From a virus: a DNA stretch of 41,987 bases. Where the stretch lies: IMG/VR virus record IMGVR_UViG_3300020215_000035; one strand, 5' to 3'. Under the pieces are notes generated by a model. That model worked only from the letters and a program-made list of their open reading frames with translations. It was not told the origin of the DNA and did no database searches. Below are positions 167 to 41,987 of the stretch, piece after piece. The stretch's first letter is position 1, and each line of letters starts with the position of its first letter. Position numbers and translations under genes: made by a program.

Positions 167-540
167 GCGCGTCCCCGTCCTCGTTCCCCGCCGTCTACCC
201 CCGGGGCGTCCGCGCCCTCGTGTGGCTCGCCCTCCGCGCCCGCCGCGCCTGGGGCTGGGCCCGGGACCCCGGCAAGGCCCAGCTCACCGCCGCCGCCGCC
301 CTCGTCCTCGCCCTGGCGCTCACGCCCGACTTCCTCGACGCCTACGCCAAGGCCGCCGAGCGGCCCGTCCGCGACGCCCACCGCACGGCGGAGCTCGTCG
401 CGCGCCGGGTCCGCCGCGCCCGCCGTCGCCGCACCGACGCCATCCGCCCCGCCGAGCACGGAAGCCTCAGGGCGGCCGAGGACTCCGGTGATTGCTCGGG
501 GGCGGTGGCGGCGCTCGCACCCCCCGCTAGCCCCCGATGA
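163..540 (+). CDS. hypothetical protein, possible membrane segment
   Basis: ATG 163 overlaps the upstream stop (ATGA). Hydrophobic stretch LTAAAALVLALALTP. Ends in ATGA coupling at 537-540. Confidence 0.6.
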   Translation: MSASPSSFPAVYPRGVRALVWLALRARRAWGWARDPGKAQLTAAAALVLALALTPDFLDAYAKAAERPVRDAHRTAELVARRVRRARRRRTDAIRPAEHGSLRAAEDSGDCSGAVAALAPPASPR

Positions 541-1058
541 AACGGCTCCTGACCATCGCGTTCTCCGCGCTCCTCCCCCGCCTCCGGCTCCGGTTCTACG
601 ACCCCTCCGGCGCCGAGGTATCACGCCCCGGCGGAAGGGGGTGGGAGTACCCCTGCTTTTCGTGCGGCGCGCCCTCCGAGACGGGCGGGTACCAGCCCCA
701 CGAGACGCGCCGGAAGGTCGGGGGGTACCGCCGGAGTCTCTGCGCCCGGTGCCACGCCCGGCAACGCCGCTGGCACTGGCTGACGTGGCTGGAGACGGGC
801 GAGCGCGTCGAGGTGCCGGAGGTGCGTGGGGAGGGCTTCATCAGCCCGAGCACGACCTACGCGAGCCACACGTATCCCGTCTACCGCCTGTTCGGGCGGG
901 AGTTCGTCTTCGCCCACGCCGCCCGCCACGGCCGACAGAACAGCCTCAACGCGCGCTTCTGGTTCCGCCGCCTGGGCGTCGAGGGCAACAGCCAGGGCGT
1001 CGAGCGAGCCACGAAAGCACAGGGCAACGTCCTCATCCTCCCCCTCGCCGACGATTGA
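537..1058 (+). CDS. hypothetical protein with CxxC...CxxC zinc-ribbon-like motif
   Basis: 173-aa ORF of varied composition; CFSCG ... CARCH cysteine pairs. Confidence 0.65.
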   Translation: MKRLLTIAFSALLPRLRLRFYDPSGAEVSRPGGRGWEYPCFSCGAPSETGGYQPHETRRKVGGYRRSLCARCHARQRRWHWLTWLETGERVEVPEVRGEGFISPSTTYASHTYPVYRLFGREFVFAHAARHGRQNSLNARFWFRRLGVEGNSQGVERATKAQGNVLILPLADD

Positions 1059-1201
1059 CCGCCCGCCGCGCCGCTCAGCCCGGGGGGGGGCGGCGGGCGG
1101 GGGCGAGCCCCCCGAGTCCAGCGAACCCCGTTCTTTGAGAGTCTGTAACCCCGCCCGTACCTTCCGAGTCGGGCTGAGGCGCCCGGCCCGGTAAGGCTAG
1201 C

Positions 1202-1213
1202 TGTGATGCGGAC
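1202..1213. repeat. Left copy of the 12-bp inverted repeat TGTGATGCGGAC flanking the first XRE gene
   Basis: Perfect reverse complement of 1648-1659 (GTCCGCATCACA). Confidence 0.9.
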
Positions 1214-1279
1214 ACATCGCGGTAGGCCCCGGCCGGGTTGCCTCGCCCACCTTCGGTAAGGGCACCGGGGAAGAAGGGC

Positions 1280-1543
1280 TCAGGCGCCCGCCTCCCCTTC
1301 TCGCCCCGGCAGGCCGCCGTGCTTCTCGATGATGTCGAGGAGGATCTCGACGGCCCCGCTCGGCTCCATCTTCCCCTTCTCCAGATCGCTGACGCTCTGG
1401 TATCGGGTGTAGCCGAGCATCCGGCCGAACTCCGATTGGTTGAGGCGGAGCCGCTTGCGGAGCGCGTGGATGCGCTCGGGTGTCCAGGCCATGAACGCGC
1501 CGAAGGTGCGGGGAAGGGCCGGATAAGCTACGGCGGCTGACAT
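1280..1543 (-). CDS. XRE-family helix-turn-helix transcriptional regulator (small Cro/CI-type)
   Basis: LRLNQSEFGRMLGYTRYQSVSDLEKGK is a typical HTH_XRE core. Opposite strand to the flanking operons. Start may be the internal MAWTPE. Confidence 0.85.
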   Translation of the reverse strand: MSAAVAYPALPRTFGAFMAWTPERIHALRKRLRLNQSEFGRMLGYTRYQSVSDLEKGKMEPSGAVEILLDIIEKHGGLPGREGEAGA

Positions 1544-1636: not shown

Positions 1637-1659
1637 TATATTCCCCCGTCCGCATCACA
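1637..1659 (+). promoter_or_regulatory. TATATT -10-like box, then after 5 nt the right copy of the 12-bp inverted repeat
   Basis: TATATT at 1637-1642 and GTCCGCATCACA at 1648-1659, with ATG at 1677. No convincing -35 was found. Confidence 0.45.
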
Positions 1660-1676
1660 CACCAAGCCTTACTGCC

Positions 1677-3684: not shown

Positions 3685-3968
3685 ACGCCCCCCTCCCCTA
3701 CTCCGAACGGGACCGCCTCCGCCGCCTCGAAGCCGAGGAGAACGAGCTGCTCGACGTGGTGACGGACGTGCGGCGGCCGATGGCCGTCCGCGCCGTCGCC
3801 GAGCACCGGCTAGCGGCGCTCCGCCCCACGCTCGACGCCCTCCAGGCCCGCCTCGACGCCGAAGAACGGCGTGCCGAAGAACTCCCCACGCTCGCCGCCT
3901 CCGGTGCCCCGTCCGTCGGGCGTGGCGCGCGGGGGGCGGCGGCCTACGAGGGCGCGGTAGCTACGTGA
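3681..3968 (+). CDS. hypothetical coiled-coil protein
   Basis: 95-aa ORF rich in R/E/L heptad-like sequence; its stop overlaps GTG 3965. Confidence 0.65.
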   Translation: MNAPLPYSERDRLRRLEAEENELLDVVTDVRRPMAVRAVAEHRLAALRPTLDALQARLDAEERRAEELPTLAASGAPSVGRGARGAAAYEGAVAT

Positions 3969-4627
3969 ACGCCGTGACCCCTCCCGCCCATACGAGGCCC
4001 GTGCGCATCCTGATCTCCGGCGGGGCCGACCTCGGCCTCGTCGCCGAGGAGACGGGGTGCCCCACGGGCACGCTCTTGGTGCCGACGTGCAACAACCGGC
4101 GGGTGCGGGAGGGGTACCCGTTCGCCGTGGACAACGGGGCCTTCACCGGGTTCAACCGCGACACGCGCGCGGCGTTCGGGGACATCCTCGCCAAGTCGAG
4201 GCCGCACCGGGAGCGGTGCCTCTTCGTGGCCGTCCCCGACGTGGTGGGGAGCGCGCGGCGGACGCTGGAGTGCTTCGAGGCGTGGCGCCGGAAGCTGAAC
4301 GGGTGGCCCCTCGCGCTCGTCTGCCAGGACGGGCAGGAGCACCTCCCGATCCCGTGGCACCAGATCGAGGCCGTGTTCATCGGCGGCTCCACCGAGTGGA
4401 AGCTGTCGAAGCACGCCGAGCACGTCGTCCGGGCGGCGCAGATCCACGGCAAGCACGTCCACGTCGGCCGGGTCAACACGCCGGGCCGCTTCTCGCACTT
4501 CGAGGCGCTAGGGGTGGACTCCATCGACGGCGGCAACCTCGCGTGGCGCCGTGAGCACCGCCTAGCGATCCGTCGCCGCCACGACGATGCCCCCGCCCTC
4601 TTCGAGCCCGAGCCCCTAGCCGCCTAA
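3965..4627 (+). CDS. minimal TGT-fold protein, DpdA-like DNA/tRNA-guanine transglycosylase candidate
   Basis: GTG start coupled as GTGA. The motif order resembles tRNA-guanine transglycosylases: VDNGAFTGF (cf DSGGFQ), AVPDVV (cf LDEC), CQDGQ (cf QGG), FIGGSTEWK (cf GGLAVGE), HVHVGRV (cf LMGVG), LGVDSIDG (cf GxDMFD). No Zn-binding C-terminal domain. Confidence 0.6.
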   Translation: MNAVTPPAHTRPVRILISGGADLGLVAEETGCPTGTLLVPTCNNRRVREGYPFAVDNGAFTGFNRDTRAAFGDILAKSRPHRERCLFVAVPDVVGSARRTLECFEAWRRKLNGWPLALVCQDGQEHLPIPWHQIEAVFIGGSTEWKLSKHAEHVVRAAQIHGKHVHVGRVNTPGRFSHFEALGVDSIDGGNLAWRREHRLAIRRRHDDAPALFEPEPLAA

Positions 4628-4756
4628 CCCCCTCCGCCTCGTGGGGGCCGGTCGCCCCCGCCGGGCACCCCCCGTAACCCGCCGCGAAGCCCAGTCTGTT
4701 CCTTGACCTGCTGCAGCCTTTAGATTCAGGCAGGGCCGCCCGGCCCCGCTCCGGTT

Positions 4757-4769
4757 GGTTGTAGAGGTA
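4757..4769. repeat. Left copy of the 13-bp inverted repeat GGTTGTAGAGGTA flanking the second XRE gene
   Basis: Perfect reverse complement of 5128-5140 (TACCTCTACAACC). Overlaps the local palindrome GAGGTACCTC. Confidence 0.9.
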
Positions 4770-4804
4770 CCTCCAAACGGTAGGCCGGGGCCGGGTGCGC
4801 CCGC

Positions 4805-5050
4805 CTACTTCTTCTCCGCCTTGCCCTTTCGACGGAGGATGTAGAACGGCCCGGCGACGGTGTAGCCGGTGAACGCCTCGATCATCGCCTTCATCGTCTG
4901 GAAGGCCCCGCGTTCGCCCGCCTCCGCCCGGCTCACCTGGGACTGGAACACGCCCAGCTCGTGAGCGACGGCGACCTGGGAACGGGTGCCGCGCGCTTCC
5001 TTGGCGACGGCGCCCAGCTCCTCGACGGTGTAGGGGGTGTCCGGCTTCAT
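4805..5050 (-). CDS. XRE-family helix-turn-helix transcriptional regulator
   Basis: RSQVAVAHELGVFQSQVSRAEAGER HTH core; 81 aa; opposite strand between two plus-strand operons. Confidence 0.85.
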   Translation of the reverse strand: MKPDTPYTVEELGAVAKEARGTRSQVAVAHELGVFQSQVSRAEAGERGAFQTMKAMIEAFTGYTVAGPFYILRRKGKAEKK

Positions 5051-5093
5051 GGCCGGAAGGTACGGCCTATGAGCGAGAAAGTTGTATGCTCGC

Positions 5094-5122
5094 TTGACTC
5101 ATATGCGCCCGGCGGTTATAAT
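5094..5122 (+). promoter_or_regulatory. Sigma70-consensus-like promoter TTGACT-17 nt-TATAAT
   Basis: TTGACT at 5094-5099, a 17-nt spacer, TATAAT at 5117-5122; 27 nt upstream of ATG 5150. Confidence 0.6.
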
Positions 5123-5127
5123 TCCCC

Positions 5128-5140
5128 TACCTCTACAACC
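5128..5140. repeat. Right copy of the 13-bp inverted repeat, 5 nt after the -10 box
   Basis: TACCTCTACAACC is the reverse complement of 4757-4769. Confidence 0.9.
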
Positions 5141-5149
5141 GACCGTGCC

Positions 5150-5353
5150 ATGCCTACCCCCGTGACCGGCTACGCCGCTCGCTCCATCGCAGAGCTAGAG
5201 CGCACCGTCGAAGAGCTCTGGACCGCCTACGGCAACGCCCGCACCGACGCGGGGGCCGAGTGCATCCGCGAGGAGATCCGCGAAGCGCAGGCCGCGCTCG
5301 ACGCCAAGCGCGCGACGCAGGACGCCTGCACCCTTCCCCGCTTCGCCAACTGA
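5150..5353 (+). CDS. hypothetical protein
   Basis: 67-aa ORF MPTPVTGYAARS... with a GTGCCATGCC start context; internal start of listed ORF 4961..5353. Confidence 0.6.
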   Translation: MPTPVTGYAARSIAELERTVEELWTAYGNARTDAGAECIREEIREAQAALDAKRATQDACTLPRFAN

Positions 5354-5408
5354 GTTTCCACGGTTTCCGCGCTTTCCACGGTTTCCACGCCTTACGAACC
5401 GTGGAAAC
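5354..5408. repeat. Iteron array A: four abutting 9-mers GTTTCCACG-like plus one inverted copy
   Basis: GTTTCCACG GTTTCCGCG CTTTCCACG GTTTCCACG at 5354-5389, a 10-nt spacer, then CGTGGAAAC at 5400-5408. Confidence 0.85.
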
Positions 5409-5463
5409 CGGGCTGCAGCACCACCCATCCGGCGCCCCGTAAGGCGCCCCCTCCTGAGTCCCG

Positions 5464-7341
5464 TTGCCGAGTCCGTCCCCCACCACCCCGCCGCTCAGCG
5501 GCGGATTCGACCCCAACGCCGTCCTTGCCCGCGCCTTGGAGCGGGGGCAGGCCGGTTCCCGAAACGACGCCGCCGTGTGGCTGTCCTGCCAGCTCCGAGA
5601 CAACGGCACCCCGCTAGCCGAAGCGGAGGGGCTGCTGCGCGCGTTCGCCGCCGACGTGGGGACGCCTGAGGGGAAGGGCCGCTACACGAAAGCGGACGCC
5701 CTCGCCACCGTGCGGAGCGTCTACCGCCGGCCCGCGCGTGAGCCGTGGGCCGGGAGCCAGACCGGAGGGGCGAAGCCGGCGAAGCGGCCCCGGAAGCGGT
5801 ACGACCCCACGAAGGTTCCGAAGGTGAACGGGGAGCTAGGCGACGCCGACGCGGCGACGCGGGAGGCCGTCCGATTGCTGCAGATGGACCCCGAGGAGGC
5901 CGCCGCGCACTCCGCTTTCATCCGTAGGGAGGAGGAACGGATCGAGCGCGAGGCCGCCTCGCTCAACCTCGACATCGAGGACGCCCCGCTCTTCCCCCGC
6001 GCCGTCTACGACCTCCTCCCCCCGTCCATCGTCAACGCGGCGGCGCACTACACCGAGCCCCACCAGCCGGACGTGTTCACGGCCGGGCTCCTGCCCGTTC
6101 TCGGGGCGATGCTCCCGAACGTGTGGACGCGGCACCAGCGCCGCTACATCTCCCCCAACACGTACGTCGTCGTGACGGCGGAGACGGGCTCGGGGAAGAA
6201 CGTGCTAGAGGACGTGCGGGCCGTGGCGAGGCCGCTATCGGACGCCCTCGCCCTCCGCCGGGCGGAGGAACTGGCCCGGTGGAAAGACGAGAAGGAGGCG
6301 GCCGAAGCGGCGGCGATGGCCGTCCCCACGGAGCCCCCCCATTACCGCCTCTTCGTCCCGGCCAACGCCTCGGCGACCCCGTTCCTCCGCGCGCTGCAGA
6401 AGAACGAGGGGCGCGGGCTCGTGTTCGAGACGGAGATATACCCGCTGACCCAGGCGAGGGGGAACGAGTGGGGCGACTACACCGCGACGCTCCTGCAGGC
6501 GTACGGCCACGAGACGGTGAGCCTCCTCCGTAGCCAGGAGGAGTTCTACATCCCGAACCCCTGCGTCTCCGTCACCCTCTCCGGCACGCCGGATCAAGTC
6601 CTCCGCCTCATCCCCTCCGTCGAGGACGGGCTGTTCTCGCGGTTCGGGTTCTTCTACTTCGTCGGGACCGACGAATGGATAGACCACGGCCCGGCCGCCG
6701 GCTTCGACGACTTCAACGCCACGCTCTCCATCTTCGGGGAGATGATGGCCCGGGCGTACCACACGCTGCACGGCCGGCCCGAACGGCTCTTCGTTGACAT
6801 CTCCCCGGACGGGTGGGCCACGCTGCAGGAACCGTTCCGGCAGATGAAGGCGCGGGCCATCGCCAACGGGCAGCGCCCCCTCATCTCGGCCGTACACCGG
6901 GGGCCGATCATGGCCGCCCGGTTCGCCATGTGCCTCACGCTCCTCTCCCACATCGAGGAGGGGCGCGACCTCACGCCCACCGTTCGGAGCGTCGAGGTAC
7001 GGGAGAAGGCGGTATGGGCCGGCTCCATGATCGCCGCCACGCTGGTTGACCACGCTTTCCGCCTCGCCCAGCACCTCCCGAAAGCGCAGGCCCTCAAGAC
7101 GGCATACAGCCGGGACGTGCTTACCCGGTTCGCCCTCGCCCTGCCGGATCGGTTCGACCACCAGGCCCTCCTCTCGACGGCGACGGCGCTGGAGCTCAAG
7201 CAGAGCGCCGCCTACAAGTACCGCGCGAAGCTGCTGCAGCTCGGGTGGGCGGAGCCGGACGGCTACGGGTGGTGCAAGAAATCGCCCCGCTGCCCTTCGC
7301 CCTCGTCCATTGGTACACATGGTATTGAACATGATGACTAG
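5464..7341 (+). CDS. PriCT-like N-terminal domain plus DUF3987-type P-loop protein (replication initiator/helicase-like)
   Basis: TTG start. N-terminus GSRNDAAVWLSCQLRDNGTPLAEAEGLL...TVRSVYRR resembles primase C-terminal (PriCT) domains. Walker A-like VTAETGSGKN and Walker B-like GLVFETE. Flanked by iterons. Confidence 0.75.
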   Translation: MPSPSPTTPPLSGGFDPNAVLARALERGQAGSRNDAAVWLSCQLRDNGTPLAEAEGLLRAFAADVGTPEGKGRYTKADALATVRSVYRRPAREPWAGSQTGGAKPAKRPRKRYDPTKVPKVNGELGDADAATREAVRLLQMDPEEAAAHSAFIRREEERIEREAASLNLDIEDAPLFPRAVYDLLPPSIVNAAAHYTEPHQPDVFTAGLLPVLGAMLPNVWTRHQRRYISPNTYVVVTAETGSGKNVLEDVRAVARPLSDALALRRAEELARWKDEKEAAEAAAMAVPTEPPHYRLFVPANASATPFLRALQKNEGRGLVFETEIYPLTQARGNEWGDYTATLLQAYGHETVSLLRSQEEFYIPNPCVSVTLSGTPDQVLRLIPSVEDGLFSRFGFFYFVGTDEWIDHGPAAGFDDFNATLSIFGEMMARAYHTLHGRPERLFVDISPDGWATLQEPFRQMKARAIANGQRPLISAVHRGPIMAARFAMCLTLLSHIEEGRDLTPTVRSVEVREKAVWAGSMIAATLVDHAFRLAQHLPKAQALKTAYSRDVLTRFALALPDRFDHQALLSTATALELKQSAAYKYRAKLLQLGWAEPDGYGWCKKSPRCPSPSSIGTHGIEHDD

Positions 7342-7696
7342 GACCGAGCCCGGCACTTTCCACGGTTTACACGGCGTGGAAACTGTGGAAACCCCGGAAA
7401 CCGTGGAAACTGGCACCCCCCTAGCCACGAAGGGAGGCCGCCCGTTCACGCTCTACCTCTTCGGAGACGACGGGAGCGTGTTCGGGCTCGAACCCACGTC
7501 GTACGAGGGGCAGCCGGCCTACGGGATCGTCGCCCTCCGCTACTCGCTCGAGGTGGAGGTGTGCGGGAAGCTCCAGCGGGTGGACCTCGCCGGTTCCTTC
7601 GGGATCATCGAGCCGGACACCGTTCGGCGGGAGTACCTCGCCAAAGGGTTCCGGGTCGTGAGGGGCCATGCCATAACGGAGGCGGCCCATGCGTAG
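7334..7696 (+). CDS. hypothetical protein (start uncertain: ATG 7319/7331/7334 or in-frame GTG 7403 after the iterons)
   Basis: The C-terminal 95 aa look like coding sequence. The N-terminal part would translate the iteron array (FHGLHGVETVETPETVETG). Confidence 0.5.
   Translation: MTRTEPGTFHGLHGVETVETPETVETGTPLATKGGRPFTLYLFGDDGSVFGLEPTSYEGQPAYGIVALRYSLEVEVCGKLQRVDLAGSFGIIEPDTVRREYLAKGFRVVRGHAITEAAHA
7356..7410. repeat. Iteron array B: two forward and four abutting inverted 9-mers
   Basis: CTTTCCACG GTTTACACG at 7356-7373; CGTGGAAAC TGTGGAAAC CCCGGAAAC CGTGGAAAC at 7375-7410. Confidence 0.85.
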
Positions 7697-9502: not shown

Positions 9503-11158
9503 ATGCCCCCGCCGCTCCCCGTCGCTCAACTGTTGAGGGTGTCCACCGAAGGGCAGGCCGACCGCCTCGGGCTCCCGGCGCAGGAGACGGCGAACGGAGA
9601 GACGTGCCGCCGCTACGGGCTGGAGATCGTGGACACCGTGCGGATCGTGATGAGCGGCGCTGACGTGGCGACCTCACCGGGGATGGAGCAACTGCTTTCG
9701 TTGGTGGAATCGGGGCGAGCAAAGGGGATCGTCGTAGCGGCGTACGACCGGCTGTTCCGCCCCGAACGGTGGAGCGACCTGATAGTCCTCCAGCGGCTCC
9801 ACGATGCCGGGGCCGGCATCTGGACGCCGACGGGGCAGATAGACTTGACGACGGAGACGGGGCACATCCAGGCGACGCTCTACAACCTCTTCGCGGCGAT
9901 GGAGCGGCGGCGCATCCGGGAGCGCATGGCCGCCGGGCGCGAGGAGAAGCGGAAGCGCGGCGACCACTGCGGGTTCAAGCACTCCATCCCGCTAGGGCTT
10001 GACTGGACAGAGGAAACTGGGTGGAGCTACACGCCGGAGATCGCCCGGGTGGCCGAGTGCTTCCGCCTCTTCCTCTCCGGCGAACGTTCCCCCGAAGCCA
10101 TCGGCGCCCGCGTCGGGCTCGGGCGCACGACGGTGCGGTACGTCCTCCAGAACGAGGCTTATACCGGCTGGCGCGTCTACGACGAGAAGCGCGGGGCGGA
10201 GAAGCTCCCGTGCGGCGACCGCCGGAAGGTGAAGCGGGCCGAAGGCGAAGTGCTCCGCGTCCGCCTCCGCGACGCCTCGGGCACCCCGCTCCCGCCCGTC
10301 GTCAGCGAAGAGGACTTCGCCGCCATCCAGCACCACCTCGAACAAGGGCGGCTCCGGAGCGCGCGGGCGAACGCGGAGACGGAAGGGCACTTCGTCTACC
10401 GGGGCGTCCTCTACTGCGCCGTGCCCGGCCCCGAAGGGGACCCCTGCGGGTGCGCGTTCTACCACTCGGCCGGGGCACGGTACACGAGCGGCCCGCGCCG
10501 CGGCGAGCGGAAGCGGTTCTACCACTGCCGCACGATCAACCCCCGCTACGGCCCGCCGTGCGGGAACCCCTACCTCTCCGAACACCTCCTCGACCCCGTG
10601 CTCGACGCCGCCCTCGCCGGGAGCCTCACCGACCGGGCGTTGCTCCGCCGCGCTCTAGAACGCTTCCAGACGCGCGCGGGCGCCGAGGCGGTGTCTACCC
10701 CGGCCTTCGACGCCGCCGCGCTCCTCGCGCGCCTGGAAGAGCGTAGGGGCCGTGTGCTGGATGCGTTCGTGGACGGCGCCCTCACGCGGGAGGAACGGGA
10801 CGCGCGGCTCGCCCGCCTCGACGGCGAGCGCGACCGCCTCCTCGCCCTCGGCCCCGTCGCCCCGTCGCCCGTTCCGGCGGCCCGTCTTAGCGCTTCGGAC
10901 GTGCTCGCCGTGGTGCGGGTGTTCCGGCGGTTCCACCGCCGCAGCTACGAAGCGAAGCGGGCCGCGCTGGAGGCCGTGCGGCCCCGGCTGTTCGTGGACC
11001 GCTACGCCGTCCGGGGCGTCTGGCTCGACGGCAGGCTCTTCGGTGCAACGGAAGCCTCCGCCGGTCGTAACTCGGGCAACCTACTTCAAACGGTTGACGC
11101 TTTCGCTACCGCTCCGGGGCTCCCCCGGGGCGGGTTATACATCCCCCTCGCCGCCTAG
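9503..11158 (+). CDS. int: large serine recombinase (integrase)
   Basis: Resolvase catalytic N-terminus LLRVSTEGQ ... YDRLFR ... ERRRIRERM, recombinase domain, Cys-rich zinc-ribbon region (YCAV...CGC...HCR...CGNP) and a C-terminal coiled coil. Confidence 0.95.
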   Translation: MPPPLPVAQLLRVSTEGQADRLGLPAQETANGETCRRYGLEIVDTVRIVMSGADVATSPGMEQLLSLVESGRAKGIVVAAYDRLFRPERWSDLIVLQRLHDAGAGIWTPTGQIDLTTETGHIQATLYNLFAAMERRRIRERMAAGREEKRKRGDHCGFKHSIPLGLDWTEETGWSYTPEIARVAECFRLFLSGERSPEAIGARVGLGRTTVRYVLQNEAYTGWRVYDEKRGAEKLPCGDRRKVKRAEGEVLRVRLRDASGTPLPPVVSEEDFAAIQHHLEQGRLRSARANAETEGHFVYRGVLYCAVPGPEGDPCGCAFYHSAGARYTSGPRRGERKRFYHCRTINPRYGPPCGNPYLSEHLLDPVLDAALAGSLTDRALLRRALERFQTRAGAEAVSTPAFDAAALLARLEERRGRVLDAFVDGALTREERDARLARLDGERDRLLALGPVAPSPVPAARLSASDVLAVVRVFRRFHRRSYEAKRAALEAVRPRLFVDRYAVRGVWLDGRLFGATEASAGRNSGNLLQTVDAFATAPGLPRGGLYIPLAA

Positions 11159-11478: not shown

Positions 11479-11508
11479 GACCTACGCCCAATCAACCCCC
11501 CTACTGCC

Positions 11509-11931
11509 ATGCCTGCCGAGACCGAGACCAAGCGCACCGCGCTCACGCCCGTTGACTGCTGCGTCTGCGGCATCTCGTTCGGGCTCCCGAAGCACTACGC
11601 CGACGCCCGCCAGGAGGACCACCGCACGTTCTACTGCCCCAACGGGCACAACCTCGCATGGAGCCACCAGAGCGAAGCGGAGAAGGCGAAAGCCGAGGCC
11701 GAACGGCTCCGGGGTGAACTCGCCGCCGCGCGTCAGGACGCGAAGTATCAGCGGGAGCGCCGGGAGGCGGAGCAACGGCGAGTGATCGCGTTCAAGGGTC
11801 AGCTTACGCGAGTGAAGAAGCGCGTGGCCGCCGGGGTGTGCCCATGCTGCCACCGGACGTTCCAGAACCTCGCCGCCCACATGAAGGGGCAACACCCCTC
11901 CTACGCCGCCGACGCACAGACTTCCTCTTGA
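11509..11931 (+). CDS. zinc-finger / coiled-coil protein
   Basis: CCVCG...CPNGH near the N-terminus, a central KAEAERLRGEL... coiled coil, and C-terminal CPCCHRTFQNLAAHMKGQH (C2H2-like). Confidence 0.7.
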   Translation: MPAETETKRTALTPVDCCVCGISFGLPKHYADARQEDHRTFYCPNGHNLAWSHQSEAEKAKAEAERLRGELAAARQDAKYQRERREAEQRRVIAFKGQLTRVKKRVAAGVCPCCHRTFQNLAAHMKGQHPSYAADAQTSS

Positions 11932-11977
11932 CGGGTCTGCGCCGGCCCCCGCGCACGCCCACACCCCCAACCCTGCC

Positions 11978-12274
11978 ATGTACCCTGAGCCCGAAGACCT
12001 CGAACGCATCCGCACCTGGGGGCCCGGCGAGCACGGCGACTTCCCCGGCCTCATGGACTTCATCCGCTCCCTGTGGCACTTCGCGGACGCGGGGTACTTC
12101 ACCCAGGAGGGCGAGGCGTTCCACCTGTCCACGGCCGGGTGGAGCGGGAACGAGGACATCATCGAAGCCCTGGAAGCCAACGGGGTGTTCTGGATGACGT
12201 GCTGGCAACGCTCCGAGCGCGGCGGGCACTACCGCTTCACCGTGAAGCCGTGGCCGAAGCCGGCCCGGGTCTAG
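11978..12274 (+). CDS. hypothetical protein
   Basis: 98-aa ORF of varied composition (W/F/H rich); last gene of the plus-strand arm. Confidence 0.7.
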   Translation: MYPEPEDLERIRTWGPGEHGDFPGLMDFIRSLWHFADAGYFTQEGEAFHLSTAGWSGNEDIIEALEANGVFWMTCWQRSERGGHYRFTVKPWPKPARV

Positions 12275-37746: not shown

Positions 37747-37919
37747 ACGAAAAGGCGGCCGTCTCTCCGGCCTGTCAAGCCTCTTGGTGCCGGGCCGTAA
37801 AGGGCGCGTGGCTACCGGCGGGGCGAGCGGCTAGGCCGCACTCCGGGCTTTCTCCCCGTGGAATGTGGGGCTAGCGCATGACGAGTGGCCGGGGCAGGTG
37901 GTGTTCGGGGGCAGGTGAC

Positions 37920-37949
37920 AATCTAGTTGCGAACGCCCCCACAACGCAA
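37920..37949 (-). promoter_or_regulatory. candidate late/lysis promoter TTGCGT-18 nt-TAGATT
   Basis: The reverse complement of 37944-37949 is TTGCGT and of 37920-37925 is TAGATT. Overlapped by the inverted repeat AGTTGCG-N13-CGCAACT (37925-37951). Confidence 0.4.
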
Positions 37950-37985: not shown

Positions 37986-38013
37986 TTGCTAGGGCTTTAC
38001 CCTAGCCTATATT
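37986..38013 (+). promoter_or_regulatory. candidate promoter TTGCTA-16 nt-TATATT
   Basis: The spacer contains the palindrome CTAGGG-CTTTA-CCCTAG; 108 nt upstream of ATG 38122. Confidence 0.5.
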
Positions 38014-38121: not shown

Positions 38122-38514
38122 ATGCAGATCCAGATCACGGGCGTGTTCGCGCCCCCGCGCCCCGGCGGCTCCTCCGGGCTCCCCCCGGCGACGCCGCTGG
38201 GGTCCTACCCCCCCTTCCGCCCCGGCACCGACGAGGCCGTCGCCGCCGTCGAGCGGGCCGTCGAGCGGGCCGCCCCGCCCCGCACCGACGCCGAGCGATG
38301 GGGGCTCGCCATGTGGGCGGGGAGCGCCGTCATCTTCGCCGCCCGCGCCCACGGCGACCTCGCCACGATGACGGCCGCCATCGCGTTCGTGCTCGGCCAG
38401 CTCGCCGAAGGGGCCGCCGTCCTCGGCGTCCGCCCCGAGGACTACGCGGCCGTCCGCACGCTATCCACCCCCGCCGTCGTCGCCGCCATCGCCGAGCCGC
38501 TGTCCCCGAACTAG
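38122..38514 (+). CDS. hypothetical protein, convergent with the repressor gene
   Basis: 130-aa ORF with a Pro-rich N-terminus and a hydrophobic/Ala-rich C-terminal half. Confidence 0.6.
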   Translation: MQIQITGVFAPPRPGGSSGLPPATPLGSYPPFRPGTDEAVAAVERAVERAAPPRTDAERWGLAMWAGSAVIFAARAHGDLATMTAAIAFVLGQLAEGAAVLGVRPEDYAAVRTLSTPAVVAAIAEPLSPN

Positions 38515-38523
38515 CGCCCCGCG

Positions 38524-39078
38524 CTAGCGTCCGCCGGTGCGGGCGACGTGGGCGGCGCGGAGGGCGTCCCCGACCTCCAGGCGGGGGATTTCGGGCGACG
38601 CCGGGACCTCCACGATGAAGCGGTCGGGCTGCCCGTCCACGGTGACGAGGTAGGCGCGGAGGGACATGACCCCCTCGACCGGCACGTAGCGCGGGCCGAA
38701 GTCGGCGGGGGTGTGCCCGTTCCCGTTCCCGTTCCCGTTCCCGTTGTGGCGGGCGAGGGCGCGGGCCTCCTGCTCCGGCGTCAGCGGCGGGAGCGCCGTC
38801 GAGCCCTCCCGCTGGAGGTAGGCGCCGCGGGCCTCCCGCACCCCCTCCCCCTTGTGGAGCCACCGGACGGACACCCCGGCGTGGGCGGCGATGGCCTCGC
38901 GGTTCTTCGGCTGCGGGATGGACTCCCCGTTCAGCCAGCGGTACGCGTTCGTCTCGTCCACCTTGGCGATGCCGGCGAGCTGCTGCGCGGTGTAGCCGAG
39001 GGAGCGGAGGCGCTCGGCGAACGCGGCGCGGAGCGCGGCCGCCTTGGGGTCGTCGTCGTTCCTCTTCGTGGGGGCCAT
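38524..39078 (-). CDS. CI-like repressor (N-terminal HTH, NG-repeat linker, C-terminal domain without recognisable S24 catalytic motifs)
   Basis: YTAQQLAGIAKVDETNAYRWLNGESIPQPKNREAIAAHAGVSVRWL HTH. Divergent from the early operon. No GDSM-type motif seen. Confidence 0.75.
   Translation of the reverse strand: MAPTKRNDDDPKAAALRAAFAERLRSLGYTAQQLAGIAKVDETNAYRWLNGESIPQPKNREAIAAHAGVSVRWLHKGEGVREARGAYLQREGSTALPPLTPEQEARALARHNGNGNGNGNGHTPADFGPRYVPVEGVMSLRAYLVTVDGQPDRFIVEVPASPEIPRLEVGDALRAAHVARTGGR
38716..38745. repeat. hexanucleotide repeat CCCGTT x5
   Basis: Perfect repeats encoding (NG)x5 in the repressor linker. Confidence 0.95.
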
Positions 39079-39132
39079 TACGGATGCCCTACGGGGGCGG
39101 GGTAAGGGGGGAGGGCCGGGGTGGCGCCGGGG

Positions 39133-39192
39133 GAAAGTGCGATTGCGGTTGCGAAAGTGCTTGCGTTCGCAGGTTCGCAGCCGTAAGTTGCG
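39133..39192. promoter_or_regulatory. operator-like repeats between the repressor and the early operon
   Basis: GAAAGTGC at 39133 and 39153 (20-bp phasing). TTGCG at 39143, 39149, 39161 and 39188. Tandem GTTCGCAG x2 at 39165-39180. Confidence 0.45.
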
Positions 39193-41615: not shown

Positions 41616-41987
41616 ATGAACGCCCCCATCGTCCACAACCCCGCGAAGGAGCCGGCCGAGTACGACCCCGGCGTCACCCTCGCCAAGCCCATCGGGCGCC
41701 CGCCGCAGAAGTGCCTCCGGGTGCGGAACGGCCGCGCCCTCTGGTACCGCTACAACGTCCGTGACGACCGGCGCGTGCTCGCCGTCGCAGAGACGCCGAG
41801 AGGCCCCTACGCCGTGGACGTATACCCCGCCGACCCCGGCCTCGTCCCGCCCCTCGTCCGCCGCTGGACGGTGGAGGTGTGCGCGCCCGACGGCATCGCC
41901 TCGTGGCGCGTCCACCACGGCACGCAGGAAGCCGCCTTCCTCGCCGGCCTCGACGCCGTGCTCGACCACCTCGGCGCCGACGCCGAG
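41616..41987 (+). CDS. hypothetical protein, 5' part (continues over the circular junction to window position 166; 136 aa in total)
   Basis: ATG 41616 is preceded by GCAAAGATACCCC. The frame is open to the window end and continues in frame at position 2. Confidence 0.7.
   Translation, partial: MNAPIVHNPAKEPAEYDPGVTLAKPIGRPPQKCLRVRNGRALWYRYNVRDDRRVLAVAETPRGPYAVDVYPADPGLVPPLVRRWTVEVCAPDGIASWRVHHGTQEAAFLAGLDAVLDHLGADAE
41861..41987. repeat. Terminal direct repeat, right copy (identical to 1-127)
   Basis: Exact 127-bp identity with the window start. Confidence 0.95.

Follow-up and report, generated by a model that had tools for sequence, protein, structure and literature searches.

Two control cassettes of one architecture divide the plus-strand arm of a temperate phage with 72% GC, known from IMG/VR record IMGVR_UViG_3300020215_000035, a stretch of 41,987 nucleotides (nt) referred to here as the window. 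Each cassette holds a minus-strand gene for a small helix-turn-helix (HTH) protein, XRE#1 in cassette 1 and XRE#2 in cassette 2, and this gene stands between two inverted copies of a short sequence, called arms below: the left arm lies in a GC-rich hairpin, and the right arm follows the promoter of the next plus-strand operon. The paired arms together with the HTH gene are a real control module, not a product of chance. As to how the module works, the arms may be cognate operators of the cassette’s XRE protein, the primary one in cassette 2 being placed at the predicted transcription start (+1) and the auxiliary one 371 bp off, a reading to which we assign a probability of about 0.4. The main competitor, in which the arms pair as RNA, is weighed against it below.

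Inverted arms, hairpins, and promoters of the two cassettes

A preliminary description of the window had reported a 13-bp inverted repeat around the XRE#2 gene. When checked against the sequence, its coordinates were exact, with GGTTGTAGAGGTA at 4757–4769 and the reverse complement TACCTCTACAACC at 5128–5140; the 5-nt gap (tcccc) placed between the −10 hexamer and the right copy was likewise present, and so was the XRE#2 open reading frame, whose stop codon lies 35 nt from the left copy. The repeat turned out to be longer than described, spanning 18 nt (4752–4769 and 5128–5145) with a single non-Watson-Crick position, T4756/G5141. A palindrome that had been regarded as local to the left copy, GAGGTACCTC, is indeed there, but it is more than a local feature, being the tip of a 79-nt hairpin that runs from 4728 to 4806. 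The repeat of cassette 1 has two parts: TGTGATGCGGAC at 1202–1213 pairs with 1648–1659, and GTAAGGCT at 1191–1198 pairs with AGCCTTAC at 1665–1672, the boxes being separated by 3 nt in the left arm and by 5 nt in the right arm. Center to center, the arms are 371 bp apart in cassette 2 and 446 bp apart in cassette 1, and the arm sets of the two cassettes do not cross-match. No dyad symmetry was found inside the arms, the best internal dyad comprising 3 of 7 pairs in the 18-mer of cassette 2 and zero in the cassette 1 arms.

Shuffling had been proposed beforehand as a check on coincidence, and such flanking repeats proved to be rare. When only the two intergenic segments flanking each HTH gene were randomized, a cross-repeat of at least 13 nt arose in 2 of 2,000 trials for cassette 2, and one of at least 12 nt in 8 of 2,000 trials for cassette 1. 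The genome contains seven exact 13-mers with an inverted copy no more than 600 bp away, and apart from the cassette 2 repeat all of them have 69–92% GC. By a composition-weighted score, the cassette 2 repeat, at 28.7 bits, stands at the top of the genome among inverted repeats within 600 bp; a repeat at least as surprising appeared in 3% of 200 dinucleotide-preserving shuffles of the genome. Chance is excluded as the origin of the arms. Each repeat pair is single in the genome, which contains two exact copies of the cassette 2 13-mer. Matches with at most three mismatches number 18, against 3.3 expected; most of the 16 near-matches are in-frame codon strings of the TAC-CTC-NAC-AAC type (NNC codons) within long reading frames, so the excess points to a codon-usage artifact, and the idea of dispersed copies of the kind known as stoperators was rejected on this ground.

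In both cassettes, the left arm occupies the 5′ half of the apex of a hairpin. The cassette 2 hairpin has a GC stem of ~20 bp, a predicted folding energy of −56.6 kcal/mol (−58.8 kcal/mol with its flanks; z = −4.5 relative to shuffles), and ACTTCTTCT after it. On the minus strand, the corresponding value is −51.7 kcal/mol. The cassette 1 hairpin folds at −55.7 kcal/mol on the plus strand vs −42.8 kcal/mol on the minus strand; its fold includes five G·U pairs within 1171–1248, or six with an outer extension, which are A·C mismatches on the minus strand. Because both hairpins are stronger on the plus strand, they are best viewed as plus-strand RNA structures. Most simply, they are probably terminators of the upstream plus-strand operons, and the cassette 2 hairpin could act in both directions. 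Inspection by eye also picked out −10-like hexamers just upstream of the hairpins, in TTGAGA-17-TACCTT (1135–1163) and in TTGACC-12-TAGATT (4703–4726, with TAGATT at 4721–4726). If active, these would yield hairpin-only RNAs of ~80 nt, and the spacer of TTGACC-12 is too short for a standard promoter.

The promoter reported for cassette 2 is present as claimed, with TTGACT at 5094–5099, a 17-nt spacer, and TATAAT at 5117–5122. This promoter, P5094, agrees with the consensus at 11 of 12 positions and is the better of only two sigma-70-like matches in the window. Transcription is predicted to start at A5129, seven nt after the −10 hexamer, and the ATG assigned to the next gene was found at 5150. 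The operon that this gene heads continues with a DUF3987 primase/helicase, a VRR-NUC nuclease, and a serine integrase (9503..11158). The right arm makes up nearly the entire predicted 5′ leader in both cassettes, beginning 6 nt after TATATT in cassette 1. Over the cassette 2 right arm, the predicted unpaired probability averages 0.82, compared with 0.43 in the remainder of the first 80 nt of the mRNA. The single −10-like hexamer of the minus strand in this region (see the table) ends 6 nt before the XRE#2 ATG at 5050, which suggests that the XRE#2 mRNA is leaderless. Pairing between the 5′ and 3′ ends of that mRNA was rejected as an explanation of the arms, because this sole hexamer gives a leaderless start at 5050 and the predicted mRNA does not include the right arm.

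Other short elements lie between the divergent promoters. The 6-bp arms of the palindrome AGCGAG-N11-CTCGCT at 5072–5094 are not significant on their own; a cassette 1 counterpart, GGCGA-N14-TCGCC at 1554–1577, has a common GCGAG..AAAG start with it. These palindromes could serve as alternative operators, or as a regulatory element that both cassettes share. Cassette 1 also has the direct repeat CACCGGAAA twice, at 1588–1596 and 1609–1617 with 21 bp spacing, overlapping the −35 region of its promoter, and this pair is a candidate site for XRE#1 or another factor.

The plus-strand arm had been described as a series of three co-directional units with an opposite-strand HTH gene in front of each, and the gene map confirms this. 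Comparison of the two cassettes likewise bears out that a single architecture is combined with unrelated repeats and unrelated HTH proteins. The modularity that had been proposed for this control device is in fact stronger than was claimed, since the stem, the promoter core, and the start context are conserved as well. Sequence is conserved between the cassettes in the stem of the hairpin (CGGTAGGCCSSGGCCGGGT) and upstream of it, in the promoter core (TATAWTYCCCC), and in the start context (TGCCATGCCTACC). Each cassette has its own hairpin apex, its own 5′ leader, and its own HTH gene, none of them related to the counterpart in the other cassette. Conserved and specific segments interleave along the cassette. 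The start context recurs more widely at plus-strand genes, as (C)TGCCATGCC without a Shine-Dalgarno sequence at 1673–1685, 5146–5158, 11505–11517, and ~11972–11981, and several of the products begin with Met-Pro-Thr or Met-Pro-Ala. We also observed that GGTAGGC, in the conserved hairpin stem, is the complement of GCCTACC, a sequence that both gated operons have at their start codons.

The XRE#2 protein is predicted to have a Cro/CI/XRE-type HTH fold. It matched Pfam HTH_31 with E = 3.5e-4, below the curated cutoff, and its profile matches in PDB were HipB (E = 3e-6), 434, and C-proteins. An alignment-based AF2 model (pLDDT 92) consists of four helices and a C-terminal beta-hairpin, and its top Foldseek matches are XRE and HipB structures. 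Exhaustive and profile searches of 1.8 to 5.8 billion proteins gave 13–16 distant homologues, and a word-indexed search returned only the protein itself; by sequence comparison, XRE#2 is nearly an orphan. No similarity was detectable between XRE#1 and XRE#2. With its four helices and C-terminal beta element, XRE#2 is predicted to fold like the HipB antitoxins, but no toxin partner gene adjoins it. The HipB-type XRE family binds palindromes as dimers, and the operators of HipB itself are the palindromes TATCC-N8-GGATA, which the arms of this phage are not.

Possible operators of the XRE proteins or possible pairing RNAs

If the arms are operators, XRE#2 would be made from a probably leaderless transcript divergent from P5094 and would bind the right arm at +1 to +18, blocking initiation or promoter escape and thereby keeping the replication/integration operon shut. 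The left arm, at the tip of the terminator hairpin, would be an auxiliary operator: binding at the two arms might be cooperative and loop the DNA around the repressor gene, or the left arm might serve as a roadblock where one operon ends and the next begins. Cassette 1 would work likewise with another protein and another sequence, so that each operon would have a private lock. The transcription start, the binding of XRE#2 to the arms, the looping, and the repression are the parts of this model that we infer. What speaks for it is, above all, the position of the genes and sites: a gene for an XRE-type protein, which we infer to bind DNA, lies exactly between the arms in both cassettes, and the right arm sits at the predicted +1 of the strongest promoter match of the genome, with the same placement in cassette 1. 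The HTH proteins and the arms are unrelated between cassettes while the rest is conserved, which is the pattern expected of exchangeable repressor/operator specificities. The model needs no further mechanism to account for the place of the HTH gene. A second copy of the site is available within looping distance (371 bp, and 446 bp in cassette 1), and auxiliary operators hundreds of bp away are a feature of lac, gal, lambda, and phage 186. Asymmetry of sites also has parallels, as the phi105 operators are asymmetric. Asymmetric sites have likewise been documented for L5 (PMC9283540).

Several observations weigh against the operator model. The arms have no dyad, although HipB-type XRE dimers would be expected on palindromes, so the symmetry anticipated of such sites is missing. 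The identity between arms, over 13 nt in cassette 2 and 12 + 8 nt in cassette 1, exceeds what is usual for operator copies, and the boxes of cassette 1 are spaced by 3 nt in one arm vs 5 nt in the other. The single robust imperfect position, T4756/G5141, is a G·U pair on the plus strand only. Both left arms fall within the 5′ half of the apex of plus-strand RNA hairpins, and each right arm takes up the leader between start site and ATG. There are other operator candidates between the divergent promoters, namely AGCGAG-N11-CTCGCT (5072–5094) and the two copies of CACCGGAAA (1588–1617). Finally, the collections searched yielded nothing related to the phage or to the cassette that would permit a comparative test. 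Thus, of the control function put forward in the preliminary description, the exclusion of chance, the three units with their opposite-strand HTH genes, and the common architecture all stand, but the identity of the repeats as operators is not established, because of the missing dyad, the long perfect complementarity, the coverage of the leader, the G·U pair on the plus strand, and the 3-vs-5 spacer. These traits of the arms suit protein binding no better than they suit RNA pairing.

In the RNA alternative, which we hold to be a serious though still doubtful contender, the hairpin apex of the upstream terminator would pair with the whole leader of the next operon in plus-strand RNA, over a predicted 18 bp in cassette 2 and 12 + 10 bp in cassette 1. 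Acting in cis, the pairing would hide the leader of read-through transcripts up to the ATG, so that no ribosome loads and Rho can abort transcription, and the gated operon would be expressed only from its own XRE-controlled promoter; acting in trans, a stable 3′ hairpin remnant or a small hairpin RNA would be an antisense regulator of the next operon. In either version, the XRE protein would bind another site. The arms lie on the same predicted transcribed strand, in inverted orientation in both cassettes; the right arm extends from within 1 nt of the predicted start to 4 nt before the ATG (2–4 nt in cassette 1), and the left arm is displayed near the tip of hairpins whose plus-strand fold is the more stable one. 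The loop-leader duplexes reach −32.9 kcal/mol in cassette 2 and −38.3 kcal/mol in cassette 1, compared with −14 to −17 kcal/mol for shuffled leaders, none of 1,000 of which attained the observed value, and opening the apex costs ~12 kcal/mol. Cross-cassette duplexes amount to only about −10 to −11 kcal/mol, so the two cassettes would be orthogonal in their pairing. The plus-strand duplexes are stronger than the minus-strand ones because of their G·U pairs; this G·U argument, however, hangs on one robust position. RNA pairing would also tolerate the asymmetric internal loop of cassette 1 and arms that lack dyad symmetry, the leaders are predicted to be open, and −10-like hexamers were seen by eye just upstream of both hairpins. 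We know of no precedent for a terminator loop that pairs with the leader of the next operon. Immunity exerted in trans by RNA through short complementary boxes does have a precedent in the P4 CI RNA with seqA and seqC (PMC4825925). The proposed structure would, however, be a pseudoknot with the GC stem that spans 360–440 nt, and nested folding of the read-through RNA gave pairing probabilities of 0 in cassette 2 and 0.42 in cassette 1, the former value being uninformative because the pairing there is a pseudoknot with the GC stem. The HTH gene between the arms is left unexplained, no Rfam match occurs in the window at the gathering score, there is no YUNR-type loop motif, and the starts and ends of the transcripts are themselves predictions. 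We place the operator model slightly above RNA pairing because parsimony and precedent were weighed above the anatomical oddities.

That the repeats are a functionless scar of cassette building or exchange, for example through inverted duplication or recombination at module boundaries, would suit the mosaic make-up of the cassettes, with homologous flanks around unrelated cores, and the indel in the cassette 1 arms, as found in decaying duplicates; we nevertheless think it improbable, since long perfect runs were kept in two independent cassettes while the surroundings diverged, the same precise placement at a hairpin apex and over a whole leader occurs twice, the interleaving of variable and conserved segments is hard to obtain from one insertion, and there are no target-site duplications. 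An invertible promoter like fimS or hin is far less credible. Flipping of 4770–5127 would connect or disconnect the outward promoter and the replication operon and create the junction CTCCGGTTGGTTGTAGAGGTA|GGGGAATTATAAC; inverted repeats of 13–18 bp around a 358-bp segment, an element size of ~0.4 kb, a near-consensus promoter at one edge that reads outward across a repeat, and a serine recombinase gene in the same operon (9503..11158) would all be in keeping with it. A single orientation is seen, however, in three independent assemblies (the window, k141_977574, and the SRR7004197 contig), and the sole recombinase is no invertase but a large serine integrase of 551 aa. Since the repeats of the two cassettes are unrelated, they could not be substrates of one and the same enzyme; inversion would split the terminator hairpin, of which the right stem belongs to the segment and the left stem does not, and the flipped promoter would run antisense into a DpdA-like gene. 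The least credible of the explanations is a small mobile element with terminal inverted repeats that carries the HTH gene, such as a miniature inverted-repeat transposable element or an element like MPME of mycobacteriophages. Its size of ~0.4 kb, terminal inverted repeats of 13–18 bp, and one small reading frame would be appropriate, but the ends have no target-site duplication, each repeat pair is single-copy in the genome, the 81-aa XRE protein is no transposase, the left end in both cassettes falls within a hairpin that has its other stem beyond the element, and no copies were found in the other collections searched.

Feature coordinates and genome setting

Features of the two cassettes, with coordinates in the window (a dot marks a feature without strand)
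Feature	Coordinates	Strand	Remarks
Cassette 1 hairpin	1171..1248	+	homologous GC hairpin after gene 537..1058
Cassette 1 left arm, (CG)GTAAGGCT, AGC spacer, TGTGATGCGGAC	1189..1213	+	5′ side of hairpin apex
XRE#1	1280..1543	-	87 aa, HTH_3 / MqsA-like
Cassette 1 −10 hexamer, TATATT then CCCCC	1637..1642	+	promoter core same as in cassette 2
Cassette 1 right arm, GTCCGCATCACA, CACCA spacer, AGCCTTAC(TG)	1648..1674	+	predicted start to 2–4 nt before ATG 1677
Cassette 2 hairpin	4728..4806	+	79 nt, GC-rich; between convergent genes 3965..4627 (+) and 4805..5050 (-)
Cassette 2 left arm, CGGTTGGTTGTAGAGGTA	4752..4769	+	5′ side of hairpin apex
XRE#2	4805..5050	-	81-aa HipB-like XRE-family HTH protein (predicted)
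TACCTT	5057..5062	-	sole −10-like hexamer (TANNNT) of the minus strand from 5040 to 5260 (pattern scan)
Palindrome AGCGAG-N11-CTCGCT	5072..5094	.	abuts −35 hexamer; alternative operator candidate between divergent promoters
Promoter TTGACT-17-TATAAT	5094..5122	+	best sigma-70 match of the window
Cassette 2 right arm, TACCTCTACAACCGACCG	5128..5145	+	predicted start (within 1 nt) to 4 nt before ATG 5150
First gated gene	5150..5353	+	67 aa; heads replication/integration operon

The window ends in a 127-bp exact terminal overlap (1–127 = 41861–41987) and is therefore a circular assembly with a true length of 41,860 bp. Its large serine integrase (551 aa, 9503..11158) is the sole recombinase gene identified. 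The plus-strand arm covers ~15 kb, from 39218 across the window origin to ~12274, and is split by three minus-strand HTH genes: the CI-like gene (38524..39078), XRE#1 (1280..1543), and XRE#2 (4805..5050). Neither tRNA genes nor, at the gathering score, Rfam families were detected in the window.

The same genome is present in an ENA metagenome (k141_977574, ERZ27252495) and partly in a Logan contig (SRR7004197), and the three are essentially identical across their common stretches. No close relative was found among GenBank phages, IMG/VR, GTDB genomes, or JGI metagenomes, and the cassette architecture appeared in none of these collections or of the 5.8- and 1.8-billion-protein sets when XRE#2, the primase, and XRE#1 were used as queries. 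The homologues of XRE#2 were distant only, stood in unrelated contexts, and had no flanking repeats; the sole primase locus at 50% identity has no cassette. In 80 metagenome loci, the match was confined to the N-terminal domain of the primase, and the strong inverted repeats there were iterons or duplicated integrase genes. A scan of IMG/VR for patterns of regulatory DNA (promoter core plus start context; terminator stem) gave only chance or coding matches. On present searches the phage is an orphan, and the whole analysis stands on one genome.

Further elements were noted around the cassettes. A 9-bp iteron, TTTCCACGG, forms two clusters at 5354–5410 and 7357–7409, each with direct and inverted copies, on the two sides of the DUF3987 primase/helicase gene (5464..7341); at one mismatch or fewer it has 22 matches in the window vs 7 expected. 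The clusters are likely a replication origin or an initiator-binding array, and iteron-like inverted clusters also occur at three distant metagenome primase loci (L044, L046, and L106). Just upstream of cassette 2, the plus-strand gene 3965..4627 resembles DpdA-like tRNA-guanine transglycosylases of actinophages and cyanophages (35–51% identity; phrog_15826), which hints at 7-deazaguanine DNA modification by the phage.

The CI-like gene and a convergent 130-aa gene (38122..38514) lie between two copies of a 28-nt direct repeat with 71% identity (37906–37933 and 39128–39155, 1,222 bp apart), which contain GTTGCGAA boxes. Promoter-like sites stand beside the copies: TTGCTA-16-TATATT at 37986–38013 and, by eye, TTGCGT-17-TAAGTT at ~39161–39190. 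The direct repeats are probably CI operators. Their arrangement is like that of lambda OL/OR and its geometry unlike that of the two XRE cassettes. Within the CI-like gene, a hexanucleotide tract, (GTTCCC)n at 38714–38745, codes on the minus strand for a linker of Gly-Asn repeats; the tract is possibly prone to slippage.

Known systems and significance

The cassette resembles several known systems and is a full member of none. Auxiliary-operator looping is exemplified by lac O1 with O2 and O3 (401 bp between O1 and O2), gal OE-OI, lambda OL-OR, and FL/FR of phage 186. As in these systems, a primary site lies over the transcription start, a second copy lies a few hundred bp off, and the repressor gene adjoins the target. 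The sites of this phage, however, are asymmetric and perfectly identical, the auxiliary copy lies past the repressor gene, in the tip of a terminator hairpin, and there is no operator cluster between divergent promoters; the 81-aa XRE#2 has no evident tetramerization domain, and its binding and looping are putative. By analogy, the device would work most like auxiliary-operator repression, although it does not show the symmetry of that class. The switches fimS and hin share with it inverted repeats around a short segment with a gene and a promoter that reads out across one repeat. They differ in that here there is no invertase, one orientation occurs in all assemblies, the repeats of the two cassettes are unrelated, and inversion would destroy the terminator. 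The early region of phiC31 has conserved early promoters, one repressor, and palindromic 17-bp CIR operators at many intergenic junctions. Both are high-GC actinophages with an early arm in several units, conserved promoters, and repressor sites at the junctions; in the phage studied here, by contrast, a separate small HTH gene and a separate pair of asymmetric repeats are found at each junction.

RNA-based immunity and stoperators offer further comparisons. The c4 RNA of P1 and P7 exerts immunity through short complementary boxes. In the P4 system, short complementary segments on one strand flank the regulatory region and control replication genes, one of them in a stable stem-loop (PMC4825925), and the RNA reading would predict the like for the cassettes. 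Unlike in P4 and P1, the partner here would be the terminator loop of the preceding operon and the target the whole next leader; a protein repressor gene lies between the boxes, no Rfam match was found, and the small RNA is a prediction. The stoperators of Cluster A phages, bound by L5 gp71 and the TipsytheTRex repressor, are present in >20 copies per genome, oriented with transcription, for a single repressor (PMC9283540). They and the cassette 2 arms are alike as asymmetric 13-bp sites of an actinobacteriophage, with copies at a promoter and at an intergenic operon boundary, and, with respect to transcription out of the cassette, both copies here are oriented alike. The phage differs in having two copies per repressor instead of >20. 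The L5-type repressor is a 183-residue two-domain monomer (PMC9283540), whereas XRE#2 is predicted to comprise 81 aa with a single HTH domain and a beta-hairpin.

The value of these findings is bounded by one orphan genome, in which the transcription starts, the terminators, the binding of protein, and the pairing of RNA are predicted throughout. On the operator reading, the cassette would be a compact and apparently exchangeable gate module that combines a terminator and a small repressor gene with a strong promoter and its private site. Its use twice with different specificities, besides the CI-type repressor, would amount to a distributed three-lock immunity, and such modules would readily supply orthogonal repressor/operator pairs for use in high-GC hosts. 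Should the arms instead pair as RNA, they would represent a previously undescribed insulation of neighboring operons, in which a terminator loop clamps the next leader with a private, orthogonal sequence at each junction, and the early arm would be wired as units locked by paired protein and RNA locks.

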